A stretch of 64,000 nucleotides of DNA from Desulfobacteraceae bacterium (GTDB lineage: Bacteria > Desulfobacterota > Desulfobacteria > Desulfobacterales > Desulfosalsimonadaceae), in NCBI GenBank assembly GCA_011389935.1, contig JAABTJ010000010.1, positions 929 to 64,928 of the forward strand, written 5' to 3'. Positions 2,939 through 48,664 of this stretch are shown one piece after another. A program made the position numbers and the translations under genes. How positions within the stretch are numbered: the stretch's first letter is position 1; the number at the start of each line of letters is the position of its first letter. The notes under the pieces were generated by a model, which had not been told where the DNA came from, did not search any database, and saw nothing but the letters and a program-made list of their open reading frames with translations.

Positions 2939-4996
2939 TTATGAATTCAGATTAACGGCGCTGCTTGTTACATCAATGCTCCCCCCGGACACGGTGATAT
3001 TGCTTCCACCGGCCGCGATCCTCACCTCGCTGCTTGTCACCTGGACCTCGGCTCCGGCCGAGTAGAGCTTGGCCTGGCCGCCGTCAGTCAGCACATGATA
3101 ACCCCCATGATACATATGGGCGGAGCCGTCTTCCAGGCTCACGTGGCTGGAACCCCGCCAGGCATGAAGGGCACCGGTGCTCATGTGCAGGTTGTTGGTC
3201 CCGTCGGTGATTTGAATCAGGGAACCATTGTCATTGAGCACCACCTTCCTCCCCCCGGCGGATTCGAGCTGTACGGCGCCGGAAGGATCATGGAGGCTGA
3301 GATAATGGCCGCTGGTCGAATTCAGCCGCACTTCCTGAACCGCATCATCGAGCACAAGAAACCGGCCGTTCGGCGTGTAGGCATGGATCATCTGCTCCGT
3401 ATCGCAAAGCTTGATGCAGTATCCTGCGGGCGTACACAGGGTGATGGAGTTCCGCTGGTCCTCCATGATAATCCGGCAGTTGTTGTTCGTATTGATACGG
3501 ATAGAAGTCTGGCTGGAATCGTCGTCAAGGGTAAAGACATGGCCATACCGGGTACTGATGATATGCTGCGTCTGATTCTGGGAAGTCACGGGGCTGGCCG
3601 TGTCGGGATTGGGCACCGCGGAGGCAATGATCGGCCGGTCAGGATTTCCATCGATAAAGGTAAGCAGCACCTCGGCCCCCTTGTGCAGCGGAAGGTGCAT
3701 GCCGTATCCGGGACCTGTATGGGGCTGTGCCATGCGAACCCAGCGGGAGGCTTTGCCGCCGCTGTTGCCGCTCTGGTCAAAGGGGAGGATCACCTTGTAG
3801 CGTCCTTCTTCGTCGACTTCCGCGTACTGACCGTCGCCGGCCGCATCGACGGTCGCATTGATGCTGCCGTAAAATCTCGGCATGGCGGTGTTGCATTCCG
3901 GCCGGAACTGGACATCCGCGGGGATCAGAACCAACTGGTTGGTATAGCCCATTCGCCCCCCGCCATCGCCGGATGCCCCTTCCTCCCCGGTAAGAAACCG
4001 GGCGGAGCGCCCCTCATGGCTCACCTCGGTGACCAGGTACCGCTGGTTGCAAGAATCCCGGTAATGGTCCGTCAACTCGAAGATAAACCCGGGGCTGAGA
4101 TTGGCGGCCGTGCTCTCCCCGTAAAAAAGGCGCTCCCGGCACAGGAAGGCCTCGGCCCGGATCCGGGCCAGGGCGTTCCCCTGCTCCGGGGTCTTGAAAT
4201 GCTCGCCGTAAATATAGACCGTCCCCCTCCCCCCCCGTGCATCAACGTCTGCCTCTCCCCTCAGGTCCAGCGTCGGCCGCCGGTAATTATAGTCTTTCAG
4301 CAGTACCCGCATGGGAAGCACCTGGTGGCGGAAGGTAAACGCATGCACGCAATCCTCCTCTACCGGCGCCTGCCCCGACGGGGGGAGATAAGGGACGGCG
4401 GTGCGGCCGGCAACATCCTGGTGCGAGGTGGAGCTGTCGGTGATGATGACCTTGTCGCCGTCATCGGTTTGTTCAAAATAGTAATAAATGCCTTCCCTCT
4501 CCATCCACCGGGAGATAAAATGCAGATCCGTTTCCCTGAACTGGCAGATATACTCCCATGGCTCGTAGCTGCCTGTCAGGCGAAGATCATAGTCATTGCC
4601 GGTCAGGCCCGCCTGCTGCAATATTTCTTCAATGATATCCGGCACGCGTTTATCCAGGAACAACTGGTTTTCGTGGTAAAGGGATGCCTGCCAGAGCCGG
4701 GGGACCAATACAGCCCGGTAAAATACCGTTTCATCGACTTCCTGGAGCTGTTCGAACCGGGAGAGCATCCCGTAAAAGGGCATTTCGGCGTCTGCCTCGG
4801 AAATGGTAAATGCCGCGGGGTTCTGGAGAAGCAGCCGAAAATCAATTTCAGGGTCTTCTGATATCAGCGTAATATCGAACTCGTATAACCGGGACAGCCC
4901 CTCGATTCCTGTAAACCGGGCAACCGTAAACGTATCTGCCGGGTAGGCCCGGGATACGAACGTATACTCCTTTTGCGCCTGGTATCCAACTCTCAT
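2939..4996 (-). CDS. vgrG: T6SS spike protein VgrG (TssI)
   Basis: 685 aa. N-terminus FTGIEGLSRLYEFDITLIS and the gp27/gp5-like core ...RWVRMAQPHTGPGYGMHLPLHKGAEVLLTFIDGNPDRPII are classic VgrG sequences. Confidence 0.95.
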   Translation of the reverse strand: MRVGYQAQKEYTFVSRAYPADTFTVARFTGIEGLSRLYEFDITLISEDPEIDFRLLLQNPAAFTISEADAEMPFYGMLSRFEQLQEVDETVFYRAVLVPRLWQASLYHENQLFLDKRVPDIIEEILQQAGLTGNDYDLRLTGSYEPWEYICQFRETDLHFISRWMEREGIYYYFEQTDDGDKVIITDSSTSHQDVAGRTAVPYLPPSGQAPVEEDCVHAFTFRHQVLPMRVLLKDYNYRRPTLDLRGEADVDARGGRGTVYIYGEHFKTPEQGNALARIRAEAFLCRERLFYGESTAANLSPGFIFELTDHYRDSCNQRYLVTEVSHEGRSARFLTGEEGASGDGGGRMGYTNQLVLIPADVQFRPECNTAMPRFYGSINATVDAAGDGQYAEVDEEGRYKVILPFDQSGNSGGKASRWVRMAQPHTGPGYGMHLPLHKGAEVLLTFIDGNPDRPIIASAVPNPDTASPVTSQNQTQHIISTRYGHVFTLDDDSSQTSIRINTNNNCRIIMEDQRNSITLCTPAGYCIKLCDTEQMIHAYTPNGRFLVLDDAVQEVRLNSTSGHYLSLHDPSGAVQLESAGGRKVVLNDNGSLIQITDGTNNLHMSTGALHAWRGSSHVSLEDGSAHMYHGGYHVLTDGGQAKLYSAGAEVQVTSSEVRIAAGGSNITVSGGSIDVTSSAVNLNS

Positions 4997-7623
4997 TATT
5001 GACTCCCGTTAAAGCTGATATCAAACGATCCGTCTGCTGCGATGCCCAAATGCACCTGGGAGGGCATCTCGGCATCCCCCATTCGCGTCAGAATTTCATG
5101 GGACATGCGCGGCAGGATTGTCCCGGCCATGATGTAATCGATATTTCGGGCGCCGGTTTCCACCTCGGTGCACCGGTTGACGATCTGGGCGACGGCATCG
5201 TCCGAATAGGTCAATTTCATCTTGTGAGTATCGGCCATCCGCTTGACCAGCTTGTCCATTTTCAGGACGACAATATCCTTGAGAATATCCGCCGGCAGGG
5301 TTTTGTACGGAATGAGTTTCATCCGGGCCAGCAGGGCCGGTTTGAAATGATTGCTCAGCACCGGCCGGATCGCATCGGTGACGGTTTCAAGCGGGGGCAT
5401 CTCCTCGCCGGTGCACATCTCCGTAATGATATCGGTTGCCAGGTTGCTGGTCAAAAAAATGACCGTGTTTCGGAAATCGATGCTCCGTCCTTCGCCGTCG
5501 GACAGGCGCCCCTTGTCGAACACCTGATAAAAAAGGCTCATGACCTCAAGGTGCCCCTTTTCCACCTCGTCGATAAGGACGACGGAATATGGCCGCTGGC
5601 GAACGGCTTCCGTCAGAACGCCGCCTTCCCCGTAACCGACATATCCCGGGGGGGAGCCGATCAGGCGGCTGACCGTATGCTTCTCCTGGAACTCGCTCAT
5701 GTTAATGGTGACCATAAAGTTCTCGCCGCCGAACAGGAGTTCGGCAACGGCCAGGCCGGTTTCGGTTTTCCCCACCCCGCTGGGGCCGGCCAGCAAAAAC
5801 ACGCCCAGCGGCTGTGCCGGGTCCTTGATGCCGGCTTTTGCGGATTTGACCGTTTCGGCGATCATTTGCAGCGCCTCATCCTGCCCCTTGATTCTTTTCT
5901 TCAAGGAATCTTCAAGGGCAAGGAGGTTTCTGGCATCATCGCGCATTACCCTGCCCAGGGGGATCCCGGTCCAGTCTGACACCACCTGGCATACCACATC
6001 CGGATCGACCTCTATGGGAACCAGGGGATCCCCCTGGCGAAGGTCCTCAAGCACCCGCGCCCCCTGCTCTATCCGCCCGGCGATATCGCTTTTTTCGGCC
6101 TCGTCTGTGGCGGCATGCAAGGCTTGCCGCAGATCAATAATCTGGTGGGCCGCCTCCCGTTCACCCTGCCATTTTTCTTGTAACCGGGCCAATTCGTTCT
6201 GATGCGCTTCCAATGCCCCTGCAATGGATTCAAAACGGTCCTTGTCCACCGGCAGGCCGTGGTGCCGGTCCCGCTCGATTGCGTCAAGCTCCCTGGTAAG
6301 GTTCTGGATGCTGCGTTCCCTGTCCTCGATAATGCCGGGCTTTGCCGAAAGGAGCACCTTTACCCGGGCCGCGCTGGTATCGAGCAAGTCAACGGCCTTG
6401 TCCGGAAGCTGCCGACCGGTAATGTAGCGGTTGGAAAGCTCGGCAGCGGCCTGGACAGCATCATCCCTGACCACCACGCCGTGGGCCTGTTCGTATTTTT
6501 CCTTCAAGCCGCGCAGGATAAGCACCGCGATTTCCTCGGAGGGTTCATCGAGCTTGACCAGTTGAAATCGCCTGGCCAGGGCCGCATCTTTTTCAAAATA
6601 TTTCTTGTATTCCGACCAGGTGGTTGCGGCAACCGTGCGCAATTCCCCCCTGGCGAGCGCAGGCTTCAGAAGATTGGCCGCGTCACTGGTGCCGGCGGCC
6701 CCGCCCGAGCCGATGAGGGTATGGGCCTCGTCAATAAACAAGATGATCGGTTTCTCCGATGCCTTTACTTCATCGATAACCCCTTTCAAGCGGTTTTCAA
6801 ATTCCCCTTTCATGCCGGCCCCCGCCTGGAGAAGCCCCATGTCAAGCCCCAAAATGGAAACCTCCCGGAGCAATTCGGGAACGTCCCCTTCCACCACGCG
6901 AAGGGCGAGACCTTCCACTACGGCGGTTTTCCCCACACCCGCCTCCCCCACCACGATGGGATTATTCTTGCGCCGCCGGGCAAGGATATCCACCATCTGA
7001 CGGATTTCCCGGTCCCTGCCGAAAACCGGGTCAATCTCCCCGGCAGCCGCTTTGCCCGTAAAGTCGATGCAGAAACGGGACAACGCATCACCCGCAGCCG
7101 GCGCGCCTTCCGGCTGGTCAACGCGCACTTCCCCTTTCCTGGATGTTTCCACGGAATTTTTCGTGATATCCCAAAATGCGGCCATCAGGTTATCCCGGCT
7201 GATCGTGCCCAGCATTTCCGCACTGCTGCCGATTGAAAACTGGGCGGGCCGGTGCAGCAACGCCAGCACCAGTGCGCCGGAACGAATCCGCTGCTCTTCC
7301 AGGTTAATGGAAGCGACCAACCAGCCCTCTTGGAACCAGTCCAGCAGAACAGGCGAGAATACAGGCTTGGCGGCATTTCCGGTTTTAAGGGACTCAAGGG
7401 TCTGGTCCACCGCCTTTTTAAAACGCGACGGGTCAATTTCAAACTGCCGCAGGATCAGGGGGATATCCGATGACTGATTGTCATCGATCAGTCTGGCCAG
7501 CATATGTTCGACGGTCACTTCGTAATGGGTGCGGGATACGCAAAGCCCCGCAGCGGCTTCCAGGCTCCGGGTGCAGTATGCGTTTAAACGGCCCAGCAGC
7601 CCCTTGATATCAACGGTGATCAT
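4996..7623 (-). CDS. clpV: T6SS AAA+ ATPase ClpV (TssH)
   Basis: 875 aa. Clp N-domain plus two AAA+ modules, with Walker A motifs GEAGVGKTA and GPSGVGKTE. Embedded in the T6SS array. Confidence 0.95.
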   Translation of the reverse strand: MITVDIKGLLGRLNAYCTRSLEAAAGLCVSRTHYEVTVEHMLARLIDDNQSSDIPLILRQFEIDPSRFKKAVDQTLESLKTGNAAKPVFSPVLLDWFQEGWLVASINLEEQRIRSGALVLALLHRPAQFSIGSSAEMLGTISRDNLMAAFWDITKNSVETSRKGEVRVDQPEGAPAAGDALSRFCIDFTGKAAAGEIDPVFGRDREIRQMVDILARRRKNNPIVVGEAGVGKTAVVEGLALRVVEGDVPELLREVSILGLDMGLLQAGAGMKGEFENRLKGVIDEVKASEKPIILFIDEAHTLIGSGGAAGTSDAANLLKPALARGELRTVAATTWSEYKKYFEKDAALARRFQLVKLDEPSEEIAVLILRGLKEKYEQAHGVVVRDDAVQAAAELSNRYITGRQLPDKAVDLLDTSAARVKVLLSAKPGIIEDRERSIQNLTRELDAIERDRHHGLPVDKDRFESIAGALEAHQNELARLQEKWQGEREAAHQIIDLRQALHAATDEAEKSDIAGRIEQGARVLEDLRQGDPLVPIEVDPDVVCQVVSDWTGIPLGRVMRDDARNLLALEDSLKKRIKGQDEALQMIAETVKSAKAGIKDPAQPLGVFLLAGPSGVGKTETGLAVAELLFGGENFMVTINMSEFQEKHTVSRLIGSPPGYVGYGEGGVLTEAVRQRPYSVVLIDEVEKGHLEVMSLFYQVFDKGRLSDGEGRSIDFRNTVIFLTSNLATDIITEMCTGEEMPPLETVTDAIRPVLSNHFKPALLARMKLIPYKTLPADILKDIVVLKMDKLVKRMADTHKMKLTYSDDAVAQIVNRCTEVETGARNIDYIMAGTILPRMSHEILTRMGDAEMPSQVHLGIAADGSFDISFNGSQ

Positions 7624-7634
7624 ATGTTCCCCTC

Positions 7635-8663
7635 CTATGCGGCGAATGAATAGACCTTGCGCATTTCCCCGATGCGATCACTGGAAAAAACCCATGAGTT
7701 CAGCCCGAGACGGGCATGATCCGGTTCGCCAAGACAGACGGTTTTCGCTTCTCCTTCAGACAGGACGACTTCAATGTCATATTCCAGGCGCTCCAGGACA
7801 TAAAAATCCGTTAAAAAACGAACCATTTTGTAATTTTCGGCCTCGGGGTAAAAGCCTTGGTACGCTTCCGAGGAAAGCGGACCGATCCGGATAACAAACT
7901 TCCCCATGCGGTCCACTACCTCTTCGCCGATAATCGTGCTTTCACCTAAGCGATGATCCGGCGACCCCAAAAAAAGCCGCTGATCCCCGGGGATTTTTGC
8001 GCGCCTTTTTACGCAGGGGACAAGGCTTACGGGAACACCACCGAGGGCATCGTTCAAAACGGTTTCAAGCCCCATGGCGGAGCGGGGTTTTTGTATCAGC
8101 AGTCCGATATAGCGAATCAGTCGGTGGGGATCCGCAATCGCACCCCTGAGCGGGGCGTCCCCGATTCCCATCAGGCAGAAGATCCTTTCCAGGTGATGCC
8201 GGCTGCCGGCTTCTATGACCTGAAAAGACTGGCGATATTTGGTGCAGCAGTCGTAGAAAAGCTCATAGATACGCTGATTGATCACATCGATAAAATCCCT
8301 GCACACACTTTCATCTTCGGCGGCTTCATGCATCAGCTCTTCTGTATAGAAAGTGGGAAGGGGGGAAGAAATGCCGTAAAGCCCCAGAAAGTTCGCGGTG
8401 ATTTCATACCCCGAATGTTCCTGGCGATCCATTTCCCGGATCCGGTCAATGTCAGCCGGCGGAAACGCCAGTGACAAGGCCGGACGGATGCGGACCGGAT
8501 GGAGCAGTTCTCCGTTCGAATCCATCCGGCCTGCCTCGGTCCGCAGCAGCATTTTGAGAAGCCGCATTGCCTGAAAAAAACTGAAGGCACGGCTGTCCCT
8601 GAGAAGATCCGATTTCAGCATCGGACCGACGCCCGGGCCTGCTTTGGGTTCCTGTGGGGGCAT
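7635..8663 (-). CDS. tssG: T6SS baseplate subunit TssG
   Basis: 342 aa. N-terminal FSFFQAMRLL motif typical of TssG. Lies between tssF and clpV. Confidence 0.9.
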   Translation of the reverse strand: MPPQEPKAGPGVGPMLKSDLLRDSRAFSFFQAMRLLKMLLRTEAGRMDSNGELLHPVRIRPALSLAFPPADIDRIREMDRQEHSGYEITANFLGLYGISSPLPTFYTEELMHEAAEDESVCRDFIDVINQRIYELFYDCCTKYRQSFQVIEAGSRHHLERIFCLMGIGDAPLRGAIADPHRLIRYIGLLIQKPRSAMGLETVLNDALGGVPVSLVPCVKRRAKIPGDQRLFLGSPDHRLGESTIIGEEVVDRMGKFVIRIGPLSSEAYQGFYPEAENYKMVRFLTDFYVLERLEYDIEVVLSEGEAKTVCLGEPDHARLGLNSWVFSSDRIGEMRKVYSFAA

Positions 8664-8680
8664 AAAATGCGGCGCTCCAT

Positions 8681-8860
8681 TTGTTGACGGCTTCGTAAAA
8701 AGCCCAATATCTGCGTTGCGCCCAATCTTTCAATAATCTCACGTACGGCTAAGTACGCTCAATTCTTCAAAAATTGCACGCGCCTTGATCTTGAACTTTT
8801 TTCAAAGCCTTCTGATCAAGACTTTTTGCGATTCCATCATTTGTTGGTTTCACCAAAAGC
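8681..8860 (-). repeat. Copy A of a miniature IS110-related repeat, inserted between tssF and tssG
   Basis: The reverse complement of 8681-8795 aligns without gaps to 48550-48664, with about 9-10 mismatches in 115 nt by eye. Weaker similarity continues to about 8860, against 48505-48549. Confidence 0.8.
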
Positions 8861-8875
8861 GGAGATCTGCCGGAG

Positions 8876-10609
8876 CTATATCAGCGGATGCAGCCCGACG
8901 CGCGCCGGCCATTGGTAAACATCCCCTTTCACGGCCTCGTTTATCGCCATGCGCGTATAGGTATTGATGGACGCATAGTTGCCGAAAAAAAAGTCCATTA
9001 TGTTTCCAAAAAGATACAGATCGCCCGCACCCACGAAATGGTCCTGCCGGATTTTCATTCGCACTTCCAGTCCGCGCATCATCACCCCGGCCACCATCCG
9101 GTTGGAAGGTACGGCCTCAAGGGCTTCAATCCCGGCAATCCGTTTCCGGTTTGCAATGATGGATGTTTTGTCCCTGGTTTCTTCAAAAACATAGAGGCCC
9201 AGTAGTGTGCGCAGGTTTTCGGCCCGGGAAAGAGAGAGGTAGTTTAATGACAAATGGGACAAAAAGCGCCATAACAGGTTGCTCCCGATGGGCGGCAGCA
9301 CATTGTTGGTCGGAACCGTAATGTTCGTAAAATCCACGAATTCGGGGGAGCTGCTGGTGGGGTGCGCAATATCACCAACCTGCAGCCCTTCGGGAAGGCT
9401 GCCGTTGGTGCACTGTACCTTGACGGAAATAATTTCCGTCTGCGGCATATCAGCGGTATCCGGGTAGGCAAAGGAAAGCAGCACGTTGAATCCGCTTCCA
9501 ATGGGCGAACGCCTTAACTTGGTATAATATACCGGTTGGCTCGCCTGTTTTGCGGAAAACAGCTCAAACGGCACGTAGGTTTTCTCTTTTGCGCTGCCCT
9601 GGACAAAACCGGACACCCTGTCGACCGAATACACCTGGTAATGATTTACATTGCTGCCTGCGGGTCGAATCTCGTAATCGGTCTTTCGATGATCCAGGCG
9701 AAACGGATCGGCTTCATGGCTGAAAATATTAATAACCGGTGTCGCCCCCAGAACAAAATTGGAGGCTCTCACGCGGCCGGGTGTAAACGGCGGATTCTCC
9801 AGGACGAAACGGATCGTGAAATCATTGCCCTCCCCCCGATTGATCCAGTTCTGCCAGCCGGAAAGATCCAGAAACAGAAATTTCGAGGGAAGAATGAAAT
9901 ATTCCTGCAAAATCCGGTAGGCCGGAAATGAGTTGGATGGATAGGGAAACAGGCTTTCCGTTTCCTGAAATCCCACCGGGCGCAAACAATCCGGGGGGAG
10001 AATCCGGTTTCTGCCTTTTTCCGAAGGAATCAATTCAATATATTGCAAATATTTCTGCAGCAAAAAAAACAGGTCCGCGGCAGCGGAATAATCGCCCCCC
10101 ATAAAAAACCTTACAAAACCGGGCTGCCAGTCCGAAAGCGGCGGCCCGTTAAGGCGCATCTTCAGGACAATGGCAGGCGGTTGTCCGGCAGGCGCCAGAT
10201 ACCCGGCCTCCAGAACACGCAAGGGATGGACAACGGTCTCGAAACAGGTTCGGAACAGGCAGGGGGTGGCGTCCACGGGAACGGATGCAAGCTGGGCGCC
10301 GGCCGGCACGGTTATGGATTGTTTCAGGGTGGGCTTCGGCGAAAAGGCCACAATCGCAGCCGAAGGAACCGGGCGCAAATAGTGGGGCCATATCAATTGA
10401 ACCAGTTCATGGATAATTTCGGGGAACTCATCGTCTAATTTTTCCCGCAGAAGCGCGGTTAAAAAGGCAACGCCCTCCAAAAGGCGCTCCACGTCCGGAT
10501 CGGTGGAAGACCCGCTCAGCATGGGGGCCACCGCGGGATGGGCCTTTGAAAATGCCTGCCCCAGGTCCCTCAGATGATCAAGCTCCTGTTGAAAATATCG
10601 GTGTAACAA
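8876..10609 (-). CDS. tssF: T6SS baseplate subunit TssF
   Basis: 577 aa. N-terminus MLHRYFQQELDHLRDLGQAFSKAHPAVAPML is the canonical TssF start. Confidence 0.93.
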   Translation of the reverse strand: MLHRYFQQELDHLRDLGQAFSKAHPAVAPMLSGSSTDPDVERLLEGVAFLTALLREKLDDEFPEIIHELVQLIWPHYLRPVPSAAIVAFSPKPTLKQSITVPAGAQLASVPVDATPCLFRTCFETVVHPLRVLEAGYLAPAGQPPAIVLKMRLNGPPLSDWQPGFVRFFMGGDYSAAADLFFLLQKYLQYIELIPSEKGRNRILPPDCLRPVGFQETESLFPYPSNSFPAYRILQEYFILPSKFLFLDLSGWQNWINRGEGNDFTIRFVLENPPFTPGRVRASNFVLGATPVINIFSHEADPFRLDHRKTDYEIRPAGSNVNHYQVYSVDRVSGFVQGSAKEKTYVPFELFSAKQASQPVYYTKLRRSPIGSGFNVLLSFAYPDTADMPQTEIISVKVQCTNGSLPEGLQVGDIAHPTSSSPEFVDFTNITVPTNNVLPPIGSNLLWRFLSHLSLNYLSLSRAENLRTLLGLYVFEETRDKTSIIANRKRIAGIEALEAVPSNRMVAGVMMRGLEVRMKIRQDHFVGAGDLYLFGNIMDFFFGNYASINTYTRMAINEAVKGDVYQWPARVGLHPLI

Positions 10610-10610
10610 G

Positions 10611-11024
10611 TCATCTCCTGATCGTTATTTTCCCGTCCTGCCCCAATTGGCTCTCAAAAACGATTGCTTCCTCTGCGTTGTCAAATGCAAGGCGGGCATG
10701 AATTTCAAAATTGAGCGACAAGAGGCCCTCTTCGATGGGAATATACCGAACCCGAACCGCCCTGAGACGGGGTTCGTATTTCTGAATGGTCTGGCGGATC
10801 GATTTCTCGATCTCCCGCGGCGCCCCCGCCTGACTGTGAAGCACGTCATTAAAGTCGGGCAGGCCGTAATCCTCGGCAATCTGCACCCCGCCCTGCCGTG
10901 TGTTCAGCACGTTCTGAAGATGGGCCATGACGGAATCGACGACCTTGTTCGGATCTTCGGTCATGCTTCGATCCGGCATCTTCGCCCGCATCCGGATCCG
11001 TTCAAGAAGGCGCGCCTCTCTCAT
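10611..11024 (-). CDS. tssE: T6SS baseplate subunit TssE (gp25-like)
   Basis: 137 aa. The size, the LLERIR start and the position between hcp and tssF fit TssE. Confidence 0.88.
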   Translation of the reverse strand: MREARLLERIRMRAKMPDRSMTEDPNKVVDSVMAHLQNVLNTRQGGVQIAEDYGLPDFNDVLHSQAGAPREIEKSIRQTIQKYEPRLRAVRVRYIPIEEGLLSLNFEIHARLAFDNAEEAIVFESQLGQDGKITIRR

Positions 11025-11108: not shown

Positions 11109-11624
11109 TCAGCCGCCGGCCGTCCGCCAGTCATCCGAGCCCTCGGTCCCGCCCACCTCGTGGGTCCAGGTAATCATCCGATAGGTAAAGGAGACATCTT
11201 CCAAATGCGTAAAATGGGACTGGGAAGGATCCTGGCAATTGGGCATATAGGCGTGAATATTCGTGATGATAGCGTCTTCCAGGGCAATGGTAAAATAATG
11301 CTCCGGCTGGCCGGAAACACTTGTTCGATACCATTTAAGCTCGCACTGGGTGAGCCTTTCCCCGCTGGTCAGGGCGTAATAAAGCAGCGGGGAGGACTTG
11401 TCAAAAACCTTGGTGATGGTCAGGGGTCTGTGCACCCGCTGGCCGGTGGGCTGACCGGACTGCGGATCCGTCGGCACCGTAACGGTATGATCGAATGCTT
11501 CCACCAGGATCTGATCTTCATGACCTTCCTGGTAAACATTGCCGACACTTTCTTCCGTAAATGCCCCTTGGGTAATCGGCCCCTGGGTTGCGCCTGTAAT
11601 GGACAAATAGCATGGTGTTGGCAT
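11109..11624 (-). CDS. hcp: T6SS inner tube protein Hcp (TssD)
   Basis: 171 aa. MPTPCYLSITGATQGPITQGAF...HRPLTITKVFDKSSPLLYYAL is Hcp-like. Confidence 0.93.
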   Translation of the reverse strand: MPTPCYLSITGATQGPITQGAFTEESVGNVYQEGHEDQILVEAFDHTVTVPTDPQSGQPTGQRVHRPLTITKVFDKSSPLLYYALTSGERLTQCELKWYRTSVSGQPEHYFTIALEDAIITNIHAYMPNCQDPSQSHFTHLEDVSFTYRMITWTHEVGGTEGSDDWRTAGG

Positions 11625-11663: not shown

Positions 11664-13151
11664 TTACTCTTTGTCGAGTTTTCCAACCAAAGACAGCGTA
11701 AAATCAGCGCCCATGTATTTAAAATGCGGCCTGACTTTCAGGCCGACCCTGTACCAGCCGGGTTCGCCCTCTACGTCCTCTACCGTCACCTTTGCCTGCC
11801 GCAGCGGCCGGCGGCTTCTCACTGCGGCGCTTGGATTTTCCTGGTCTGCGACATACTGCCGAATCCATTCGTTGAGTTCGCGGTCCAGATCCATGCGCTC
11901 TTTCCATGTTCCGATATTTTCCCGCTGAATGACTTTCAGGTAGTGGGCCAGCCGGTTGATGACGAACATGTAAGGTAATTGCAGGCCCAGCTTGTAGTTC
12001 AGCTCCGCATCCTTGCCTTCCTTGCTGATGCCGAAAAATTTGGGCTTCTGGACGGAGTTGGCGGAGAAGAACGCCGCATTGTCGCTCCCTTTCCGCATGG
12101 TCAATCCGATAAACCCTTCTTCGGCCAGCTCAAACTCCCTCCGCTCGGAAATCAGGACTTCCGTGGGAATTTTGGTCTGGACCGCTCCCATGGCTTCATA
12201 CTGATGGAGCGGAAGGTCTTCCACCGCACCCCCCCCCATGGGGCCGATGATGTTGGCACACCACCGGTACTTGGCAAAACTGTCGGTCAGGCGGGAAGCG
12301 AAGGTGAACGCGGCATTCCCCCACAAATAATGATCATGACTGGAAGAGACATTTTCCTGGTAATTAAACGCTTTGACCGGCTGCGTATCCGGCCCGTAGG
12401 GAATGCGCAGCAGAAAACGCGGCAATGCAAGGGCCACATACCGGGCATCCTCGCTTTCCCTGAAAGACTGCCACTTGGTGTACTTGGGTCCTTCAAAGAT
12501 GGATTTCAAATCCTTCAGCTGCGGAAGTTTCTGGAAATCATCGAGATCGAAAAACTCCGGGCCGGCCGCCGCGATAAAGGGGGCATGGGCCATGGCGCCC
12601 ACGCTGGCGACGTACTGGAGAAGTTTTATATCCTCCGGACCGGGGCCGAAGTCGAAGTTGGCCACCATGGCGGCATACGGCTTGCCGCCGAACTGGCCGT
12701 ACTCGGCCGTATAAACCGTCTTATAGAGCCCGGATTTCGGAATTTCGGGCGAATCTTCAAAATCTTCCAGCAAGTCGCCCTTGCTGACATTGAGCACTTC
12801 GATCTTGATATTTTCCCTGAAGTTGGTCTTATCCACCAGGTAATTCAGCGACCGCCATGCAGACTCCAGCTTCTGGAATTCCCTGCTGTGAAGGATGGCG
12901 TCCAACTGCAGACTCATCTTGTTGTCGATCTCGGCGATCATCTCGTCGACATCCGCCTTGGAAACCTTTTCCACCTTTTTCCCCGGTTCGATAAGCTGGC
13001 CGATCAGCGCCTCGATCCCTTTTTTGGCCAATCCGTAAGACTCGTCCCCGGGCTTCAGCTTGGTGGCCTGAACAATATCGTCGATCAGGGAGGTCGACTC
13101 CTGGGTTGTTTTTTCGACGCCTGCAGCATCCTGTGTTTGTTCTTCCGGCAT
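11664..13151 (-). CDS. tssC: T6SS contractile sheath large subunit TssC
   Basis: 495 aa. Conserved sheath sequence, for example SWRSLNYLV and LPRFLLRIPYG. Follows tssB. Confidence 0.95.
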   Translation of the reverse strand: MPEEQTQDAAGVEKTTQESTSLIDDIVQATKLKPGDESYGLAKKGIEALIGQLIEPGKKVEKVSKADVDEMIAEIDNKMSLQLDAILHSREFQKLESAWRSLNYLVDKTNFRENIKIEVLNVSKGDLLEDFEDSPEIPKSGLYKTVYTAEYGQFGGKPYAAMVANFDFGPGPEDIKLLQYVASVGAMAHAPFIAAAGPEFFDLDDFQKLPQLKDLKSIFEGPKYTKWQSFRESEDARYVALALPRFLLRIPYGPDTQPVKAFNYQENVSSSHDHYLWGNAAFTFASRLTDSFAKYRWCANIIGPMGGGAVEDLPLHQYEAMGAVQTKIPTEVLISERREFELAEEGFIGLTMRKGSDNAAFFSANSVQKPKFFGISKEGKDAELNYKLGLQLPYMFVINRLAHYLKVIQRENIGTWKERMDLDRELNEWIRQYVADQENPSAAVRSRRPLRQAKVTVEDVEGEPGWYRVGLKVRPHFKYMGADFTLSLVGKLDKE

Positions 13152-48196: not shown

Positions 48197-48434
48197 CTAT
48201 CTGTCCCTCCGACTGGCTTTATTGATCATTTTTTCCGGCAGGCACCGTCTCCGGTTCATTTCCCCCCGGCTGCAAGGCTTTGCCGCAACATCGATATGAT
48301 GCATGCGAACAGGTAATGTAGCATTTTCTTTTCCATTAATAAACCATGATAGACTCGTAAATACCATGTTGGTCCCAAACGATGTTAGAATAAGAGGGCT
48401 ACAAAAACCTTATTCAACAAAGGAGGGAACCAAC

Positions 48435-48587
48435 ATGGCGAAAATCAATTTATCACAGTTAAACGATGTTTTGGAAAAACAAATTGGTACTGTTTTTCAC
48501 GTTGGTATTGATGTTCATAAAAAGTCGTTTTCAGACGGCTTTGTAAAATGTTCAAGATCAAGGCGCGTGCAATTTTTGAAGAATTGA
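48435..48587 (+). pseudogene. 5' stub of an IS110-family (DEDD) transposase gene
   Basis: AGGAGGG RBS then MAKINLSQLNDVLEKQIGTVFHVGIDVHKKSF, where VGIDV-x-K is the N-terminal catalytic motif of IS110 transposases. The reading frame collapses about 20 codons later, and the rest of the gene is absent. Confidence 0.6.
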
Positions 48588-48664
48588 TCGTACTTCGCCG
48601 TACGTGAGATTCTTCAGAAATTGTGCGCAACGCAGATATTGGACTCTTTACGAAGCCGTCAACC
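48505..48664 (+). repeat. Copy B of the miniature IS110-related repeat
   Basis: 48550-48664 matches the reverse complement of 8681-8795. It is contiguous with the transposase stub, suggesting an internally deleted IS. Confidence 0.8.

Follow-up and report, generated by a model that had tools for sequence, protein, structure and literature searches.

A MITE of a family widespread in Desulfobacterota occupies the tssF-tssG spacer of a type VI secretion operon and shares its ends with an IS1182-like insertion sequence

Among the described prokaryotic MITEs, Correia and ERIC elements are flanked by TA, and Chunjie of Geobacter uraniireducens measures 178-235 bp, with 21-bp terminal inverted repeats (TIRs) and 9-bp direct repeats (PMC3184786). 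Promoters have been found in Correia elements, which RNase III also cleaves, and mRNA decay is influenced by ERIC elements (PMC10969869, PMC3184786). Within the IS1182 family of insertion sequences (IS), the captured element ISPse1 of Paracoccus seriniphilus is 1653 bp long, with 16-bp inverted repeats and 4-bp duplications (PMC3281130). A published description of the repeat family reported here, or of any MITE or REP element in Desulfobacterales, was not found in the literature. The repeat is a new MITE family member, a well-defined element of a known kind, located in a T6SS operon.

The window is a stretch of 64,000 nt from the genome of an uncultured member of the Desulfosalsimonadaceae (2.84 Mb in 58 contigs, 54% GC). 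The following features of its T6SS operon concern us here:

11664-13151, minus strand: tssC, confirmed by Pfam.
11109-11624, minus strand: hcp, confirmed by Pfam.
10611-11024, minus strand: tssE (TssE/gp25), confirmed by Pfam.
8876-10609, minus strand: tssF, 577 aa (Pfam T6SS_TssF, E = 5.5e-152), with its TAG stop at 8876-8878.
8675-8678, minus strand: Shine-Dalgarno sequence GGAG of tssG, intact, in the mRNA 6 nt downstream of the left end of the MITE.
7635-8663, minus strand: tssG, 342 aa (Pfam T6SS_TssG, E = 1e-85), with its ATG at 8661-8663.
4996-7623, minus strand: clpV/tssH, 875 aa (Pfam AAA_2, AAA_lid_9, ClpB_D2-small), downstream in the same operon.

The intergenic gaps are 39 nt (hcp-tssC), 84 nt (tssE-hcp), 1 nt (tssF-tssE), 212 nt (tssF-tssG, 8664-8875) and 11 nt (clpV-tssG). 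The first-pass annotation had pointed to the 212-nt separation, which was reproduced, and had proposed that a miniature element, occurring a second time in the window in inverted orientation, had inserted into a normally tight junction. The repeat pair is real: a formal search returned a single inverted pair across the whole window, 8683-8827 against 48519-48663, 145 nt long and 90% complementary. The core of 115 nt with about nine mismatches that had been aligned by eye was thus a conservative estimate. Comparison with T6SS loci lacking the insertion had also been suggested, and in four such relatives the tssF and tssG ORFs overlap. Since these four loci overlap and both gapped loci hold a MITE, the tssF/tssG junction is normally tight.

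Copies of the repeat were then counted, as the annotation had proposed. BLAST of the tssF-tssG spacer against its own genome gave 158 matches, and an nhmmer profile built from 39 full-length copies detected 172 non-overlapping loci, about 120 of them full length, which make up 0.8% of the genome. Such a number of loci shows that the repeat did not arise as a chance match. Because 30 of the 116 contig ends lie inside a copy, the true copy number exceeds 172. The element is also a main cause of the fragmentation of this MAG, with a quarter of the contig ends falling in it.

The ends and duplications, which the annotation had likewise left to be defined, were taken from the alignment of copies. 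The consensus runs 5'-TGACGGCTTCGTAAAAAG...CTTTTTACGAGTYCATC(A)-3' (its ends can also be written TGAYGG..TCGTAAAAAG), with TIRs of about 18-20 nt, and the terminal module recurs a third time inside the element. The alignment of 74 copies taken from many genomes shows conservation of TGACGGCTTCGTAAAAAG at one terminus and of CTTTTTACGAGTYCATCA at the opposite one. The family unit is 154 nt long, and forms of about 124 nt also occur in some genomes. Among 105 copies with both flanks available, a perfect target-site duplication of 4 bp was found in 66 and one of 5 bp in 61, compared with 0-15 copies in other registers; the duplications, of 4-5 bp, have the form A-W-W-W-T. The reconstructed target is T-Y-A/NNNN/T-R-A, with A present in 92% and T in 92% of the sites, flanked by Y and R. 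The duplication can be read as 4, 5 or 6 bp because the first T and the last A of the MITE repeat the flanking T and A. A filled site in the sister species (G006, locus L032) reads ttttATAAT/TGACGA...GCATC/ATAATtgatg, and the matching empty site in the genome of the window (G000, C32:3107-3111), ttttATAATtgatg, contains ATAAT once. At 154 nt, with no transposase gene but with TIRs, duplications, an empty site and many dispersed copies, the repeat is a MITE in every respect tested; elements of this sort are ordinary selfish DNA. The idea of a miniature element in the tssF-tssG junction is thereby borne out by TIRs, target-site duplications, an empty/filled pair and some 170 copies.

The boundaries of the copy in the T6SS operon were set from the 39-copy alignment and the empty-site comparison:

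8685-8838, plus strand: MITE copy of 154 nt, matched by nhmmer to positions 1-155 of the family profile, from TGACGGCTTCG to GATTCCATC.
8679-8684, no strand: left target-site duplication, ATTTGT, read from the sequence.
8839-8844, no strand: right target-site duplication, ATTTGT, read from the sequence.
8685-8705, plus strand: left terminal module TGACGGCTTCGTAAAAAGCCC, presumed transposase-binding end.
8789-8812, minus strand: inner right module, which repeats the terminal module in inverted orientation.
8816-8838, minus strand: outer right terminal module TGATGGAATCGCAAAAAGTC (minus-strand sequence), which forms the actual right end of the MITE.
8706-8733, minus strand: weak sigma-70-like match TTGAAA-16 nt-GATATT, inside the MITE and reading towards tssG.

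The copy has a GC content of 42%, compared with 54% in the window as a whole. It is turned with its left end towards tssG and lies antisense to T6SS transcription; along the mRNA it starts 36 nt past the TAG stop of tssF and ends 6 nt before the tssG Shine-Dalgarno sequence. Together with the 6-nt duplication it accounts for 160 of the 212 nt, which implies a spacer of about 52 nt before insertion. The width of the gap requires no special explanation, and the T6SS operon is probably intact despite the MITE.

In the genome of the window all copies are intergenic and occur in either orientation; the apparent cases inside ORFs are short frames made by the MITE itself, or over-extended starts. Copies lie between 37 convergent, 28 divergent and 53 same-strand gene pairs (25 sense, 28 antisense), and the two MITE ends adjoin stop codons and start codons without bias (20/21 and 19/20). 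About 12 other same-strand copies leave a residual spacer of at most 100 nt, indicating that insertion within operons is not peculiar to the T6SS.

Several smaller observations concern the copies themselves. In 15 of them the neighbouring gene uses the TGA at one or the other MITE terminus as its stop codon (for example C11:89318-89472, C7:16274-16428 and C29:10575-10728 of the same genome), which fits the stop-codon-like target T-Y-A/N4/T-R-A. One frame of the MITE is open in 82 of 116 copies and produces spurious ORFs of 70-160 aa. This frame matched no Pfam family and, by eye, a copy in a distant relative (locus L042, see below) has a stop in it, so that a peptide-coding reading was rejected; most simply, the open frame was inherited from a master copy. 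Mini forms with duplications are present elsewhere in the genome, and the solo ends or matches restricted to positions 1-37 proved to be mini forms or truncated copies and not IS ends. A plasmid collection gave no useful match to the whole MITE or to its 37-nt end.

The second copy in the window has a different neighbourhood:

48515-48661, minus strand: MITE copy 2, between recA and the next gene, truncated at its right end and without target-site duplication.

The short ORF adjoining it (48435-48587) encodes a true N-terminus of IS110 type (MAKINLSQLNDVLEKQIGTVFHVGIDVHK...) and has a ribosome-binding site. The corresponding 5' unit (48357-48587, plus strand) combines a strong ribosome-binding site with the initial ~30 codons of a transposase of IS110 type (VGIDVHK...), and such units were also seen at C37:17147-17236 of the same genome, beside a MITE copy at a contig end, and at L120:1380-1698. 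A real N-terminus next to copy 2, and the same unit beside the copy on C37, would be expected if the MITE were an internally deleted IS110-type element. Several findings leave this origin scarcely any probability, and IS110 was rejected as the parent. The stub accompanies only 2 of the 172 copies (copy 2 and the one on C37), and copy 2 is truncated at the IS110 junction and has no duplication. In a genome of another genus (G010), the stub ORF continues as ...VGIDVHKNSYHVAFWGDAGQ, a normal IS110 N-terminus with no relation to the MITE. Terminal inverted repeats and regular duplications, both present in the MITE, are not known from IS110 elements. Copy 2 lacks a duplication because the IS110 stub cuts off its right end. 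In the genus of G010, this same stub lies directly downstream of a MITE-like left-end fragment. Going by these sequences, the arrangement suggests that IS110-type elements insert into or beside the MITE.

A candidate for the mobilising enzyme came from twelve well-assembled genomes rich in MITE copies, which were searched for DDE_Tnp_1 genes. The search gave one locus, L142, at which the MITE end modules lie about 1.9 kb apart. The IS at L142:352-2240 has the ends TGATGGACCTGTAAAAAGTC and TGATGGACTTGTAAAAAGTC, identical to the MITE TIRs at 19 of 20 positions, and is flanked by the duplication AAGT in the context A-AAGT-T. It contains a single ORF of 529 aa (L142:507-2096) with DUF772, DDE_Tnp_1_6 and DDE_Tnp_1 domains. 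The best NCBIfam match of this transposase is IS1182 (NF033551; positions 43-485 of 488), and since the score of 176.7 bits is below the cut-off of 270, we refer to it as IS1182-like and not as an IS1182 member; the IS is a divergent relative within the IS1182/IS5 group. Homologues with 50-59% identity were found in four genomes of the family to which the window belongs and in four more of the order. Eight further IS loci in seven genomes have inverted TGAYG...CGTAAAAAG ends spaced 1889-1913 bp apart, so that the same 18-20 nt that form the left module of the MITE delimit these 1.9-kb IS1182-like elements. Of the nine IS copies in eight genomes, five show a 4-bp duplication and four no clear duplication. 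The IS1182 family spans about 1.3-1.95 kb, and the candidate fits it with a single DDE ORF, inverted ends, a size of 1889-1913 bp and short duplications of 4 bp, as made by ISPse1 (PMC3281130).

Likeness between the MITE and the IS does not extend beyond about 20 nt, which indicates that the MITE uses the ends of the IS and is not a simple deletion derivative of it. No trace of the IS1182-like transposase was found in the genome of the window or in its genus, and a search for paired ends 0.2-6 kb apart in this genome and three well-assembled members of the phylum returned no autonomous element. With the partner IS absent from the assembly, the local MITE copies are probably immobile now. Given the shared ends and duplications, we consider it likely that the MITE has been mobilised in trans by an IS1182-like transposase.

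Other transposases were considered as well. An IS3 or IS21 parent, both of the rve type, was rejected: the genome of the window has no gene with an rve domain (PF00665), and 12 rve loci in eight relatives lack MITE ends. In genome G030, contig C6 carries a Mu-type transposase (rve + Mu-transpos_C, 433 aa) together with an AAA_22 ATPase (285 aa) at L096:1551-5393; a 16-nt match upstream of this pair belongs to a longer stretch of homology between genomes and was rejected as an end. The pair adjoins a ThsB-like TIR-domain protein and is unrelated to the MITE; it looks like a Tn-like element with a possible Thoeris defence component.

Each MITE copy folds into a rod of about 47 pairs, in which the left end pairs with the inner inverted end module to close some 125 nt, and the outer right end forms a 28-nt tail outside the rod. 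The rod was derived from per-sequence folds, on which the pairs were counted; RNAalifold on the mixed alignment did not recover it. Over an alignment of 74 copies drawn from many genomes, pairs are formed in 91% of cells. Changes on both sides were found in 21 of the 47 pairs, against 10.5 +/- 2 in column shuffles (0 of 500 reached 21) and 10-14 in slid registers of the rod, a difference that is suggestive of selection on the rod among copies that are related to one another. As RNA, the TGATG...GTCA strand is the more stable one in 115 of 116 full-length copies (means -66 vs -49 kcal/mol). On the TGACGG strand, A-C mismatches number 129 and G-T mismatches 54. The compensatory changes and the strand asymmetry could reflect a role at the level of the host or of the RNA; the lack of gene-orientation bias argues against a general RNA-level function. 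In Rfam 15, tRNA-Sec was the only hit in the window at gathering score, and matches of the spacer were at chance level.

A host palindrome of the REP/BIME or ERIC kind, moved by RAYT/HUH enzymes or immobile, and not derived from a DDE element, would agree with several of these properties. Compensatory changes preserve the rod across subfamilies, conservation of the first 37 nt between families is very strong, many copies have been inherited stably at orthologous positions, and the genus lacks the transposase. Nevertheless, we regard such an origin as very improbable, given that most copies have 4-5-bp duplications, that an empty/filled pair exists, and that the termini are common to a transposase-encoding IS with the same duplications. 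Moreover, REP sequences are 20-40 nt long without duplications and ERIC is flanked by TA (PMC3184786).

The six other genomes of the genus all carry the MITE family, as do 43 of 61 close relatives, and it also occurs in several other families of the order, there with 70-78% identity and with the first 37 nt 92-97% conserved. In an even sample of the phylum Desulfobacterota it was present in 60 of 201 genomes. At least six sampled copies of G006 and G001 occupy sites orthologous to those in the genome of the window, with flanks 75-95% identical, and copies in the latter are at most 99.4% identical to their nearest neighbour, with a median identity of 95.9%. Judged by these sequence comparisons, the family is an old one, and most local copies have long been in place. 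One orthologous pair (L109:1000-1153 and C58:85701-85853 of the genome of the window) is 100% identical in the MITE with flanks of 92-94%; other orthologous MITE pairs are 86-97% identical. Gene conversion, or a binning or assembly effect, is a possible cause of the identical pair.

The T6SS insertion can itself be followed into relatives. In the sister species, whose TssG has 95-96% amino-acid identity to that of the window, an element of only 50 nt occupies exactly the same site and shares both the flanks and the unusual GCGATTCC end. This form consists of the left and the outer right ends, the outer right module being kept, and lacks a 105-nt core between two AAAGCC repeats. The shared site, flanks and GCGATTCC end point to one insertion event that is older than the species split, followed by a deletion in one lineage. 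In G006, tssG is split over contigs C100 and C230 (loci L046, L049, L052 and L053), and codons 45-132 of tssG are repeated in inverted orientation at one contig end, probably an assembly artefact beside the palindromic MITE, which makes the 50-nt form there provisional.

A distant Desulfobacteraceae MAG (L042), with a TssG 58% identical to that of the window, also has a MITE at the tssF/tssG junction, in the opposite orientation. It sits exactly at the formerly overlapping tssF stop and tssG start (ATGA), and a further MITE copy follows clpV at this locus. The tssF/tssG insertion in L042 is an independent event. The MITE at L042:5823-5995 is flanked by a perfect 12-nt direct repeat, CTGATATGATTT, which contains the overlapping stop and start, so that both genes keep their signals. 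This repeat is much longer than the usual 4-5 bp, and the last ~10 nt of the MITE are atypical.

Taken together, a MITE, an IS1182-like partner and a tolerated passage in the T6SS operon form the joint explanation that we consider best and highly probable. A non-autonomous DNA transposon, of a family widespread in Desulfobacterota, fills the spacer. It landed in the ~52-nt tssF-tssG spacer before the separation from the sister species, and the enzyme that moved it in trans would be the DDE transposase of an IS1182-like IS of ~1.9 kb. The MITE would probably be co-transcribed with the operon as a 5'-UGAUGG...CGUCA-3' rod hairpin of about -57 kcal/mol, and the insertion has left the ribosome-binding site and start codon of tssG intact. 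The predicted fold of the MITE in T6SS mRNA sense has -57.3 kcal/mol, and that of the whole spacer -74.6 kcal/mol (z = -5.4), with the ribosome-binding site predicted to remain unpaired. On this evidence the T6SS insertion is most likely a tolerated passenger. At most, by analogy with Correia and ERIC elements, it may modulate mRNA processing or stability. It does not appear to be a T6SS-specific regulator, as nothing in the sequence marks dedicated regulation.

The first-pass annotation had also raised an effect on expression of the downstream genes through a processing site, terminator or promoter, and the MITE might have been co-opted as a cis-acting RNA element of the operon. It would then act as a processing site such as a target of RNase III, as a stabiliser of the upstream tssBC-hcp-tssEF part, or as an internal promoter that uncouples tssG-clpV-vgrG. 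The long rod in mRNA sense (-57.3 kcal/mol; spacer z = -5.4), the weak promoter-like site facing tssG, the retention of the insertion in two species, the independent insertion at the same junction in another lineage and the precedents of Correia and ERIC (PMC10969869, PMC3184786) would all be compatible with co-option. However, nothing but the ends remains at this site in the sister species, where the whole 105-nt rod is gone, the two lineages have the MITE in opposite orientations, and about 170 copies lie in unrelated contexts without orientation bias. In addition, a consensus scan of the tssF-tssG spacer region found no terminator-like site, and the promoter match, by consensus only, reaches 9 of 12 positions, where chance alone would give 0.6 such sites in the region. 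The ~12 other copies at tight junctions and the survival of the insertion past the species split argue against strong polarity. We therefore consider co-option unlikely.

In a broader form, the hairpin may have been recruited as a general element of mRNA punctuation, stability or processing, as has been proposed for ERIC and REP. This reading draws on the helix that compensatory substitutions maintain in subfamilies from many desulfobacterotal families, the more stable strand, the persistence at orthologous sites across genus-level divergence and the two independent hits at tssF-tssG, and it seems improbable. If it were true, the hairpin would set the ratio of upstream to downstream products of the T6SS baseplate.

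Whatever its effect on the transcript, the tolerated MITE matters for the genomes that carry it, roughly 30% of the sampled Desulfobacterota. In the genome of the window it takes up 0.8% of the sequence and a quarter of the contig breaks, and it makes spurious ORFs and the stop codons of about 15 genes. Naming and masking the family would improve the assembly and annotation of genomes of sulfate reducers. The link to the IS1182-like element provides a testable pair of donor and enzyme, and would explain the stop-codon-like target T-Y-A/N4/T-R-A.

Compared with known systems, the element resembles REP/BIME sequences in being an intergenic palindrome with many copies, some in operons, that form hairpins in mRNA. 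REP/BIME, however, are GC-rich palindromes of 20-40 nt without duplications or TIRs and are associated with RAYT; with 154 nt, 42% GC, duplications and an empty site, the element is not REP/BIME. The likeness to IS1182 lies in the candidate IS, a single-ORF DDE element of 1.89-1.91 kb with ~20-bp inverted ends and 4-bp duplications, whereas the window element lacks a transposase gene and has no more than its first ~20 nt in common with that IS. It is not a Correia or ERIC element, which have a TA flank and occur in Neisseria and enterobacteria, since its duplications are 4-5 bp and its host belongs to the Desulfobacterota. Nor is it Chunjie, with 154 nt and 4-5-bp duplications against 178-235 bp and 9 bp. 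The closest likeness in kind, with no sequence relationship to any of them, is to the prokaryotic MITEs Correia/NEMIS of Neisseria, ERIC, Nezha and Chunjie: like these, the element is short, non-coding and A+T-rich, has TIRs and duplications, occurs in many intergenic copies, forms a long hairpin and is found within operons.
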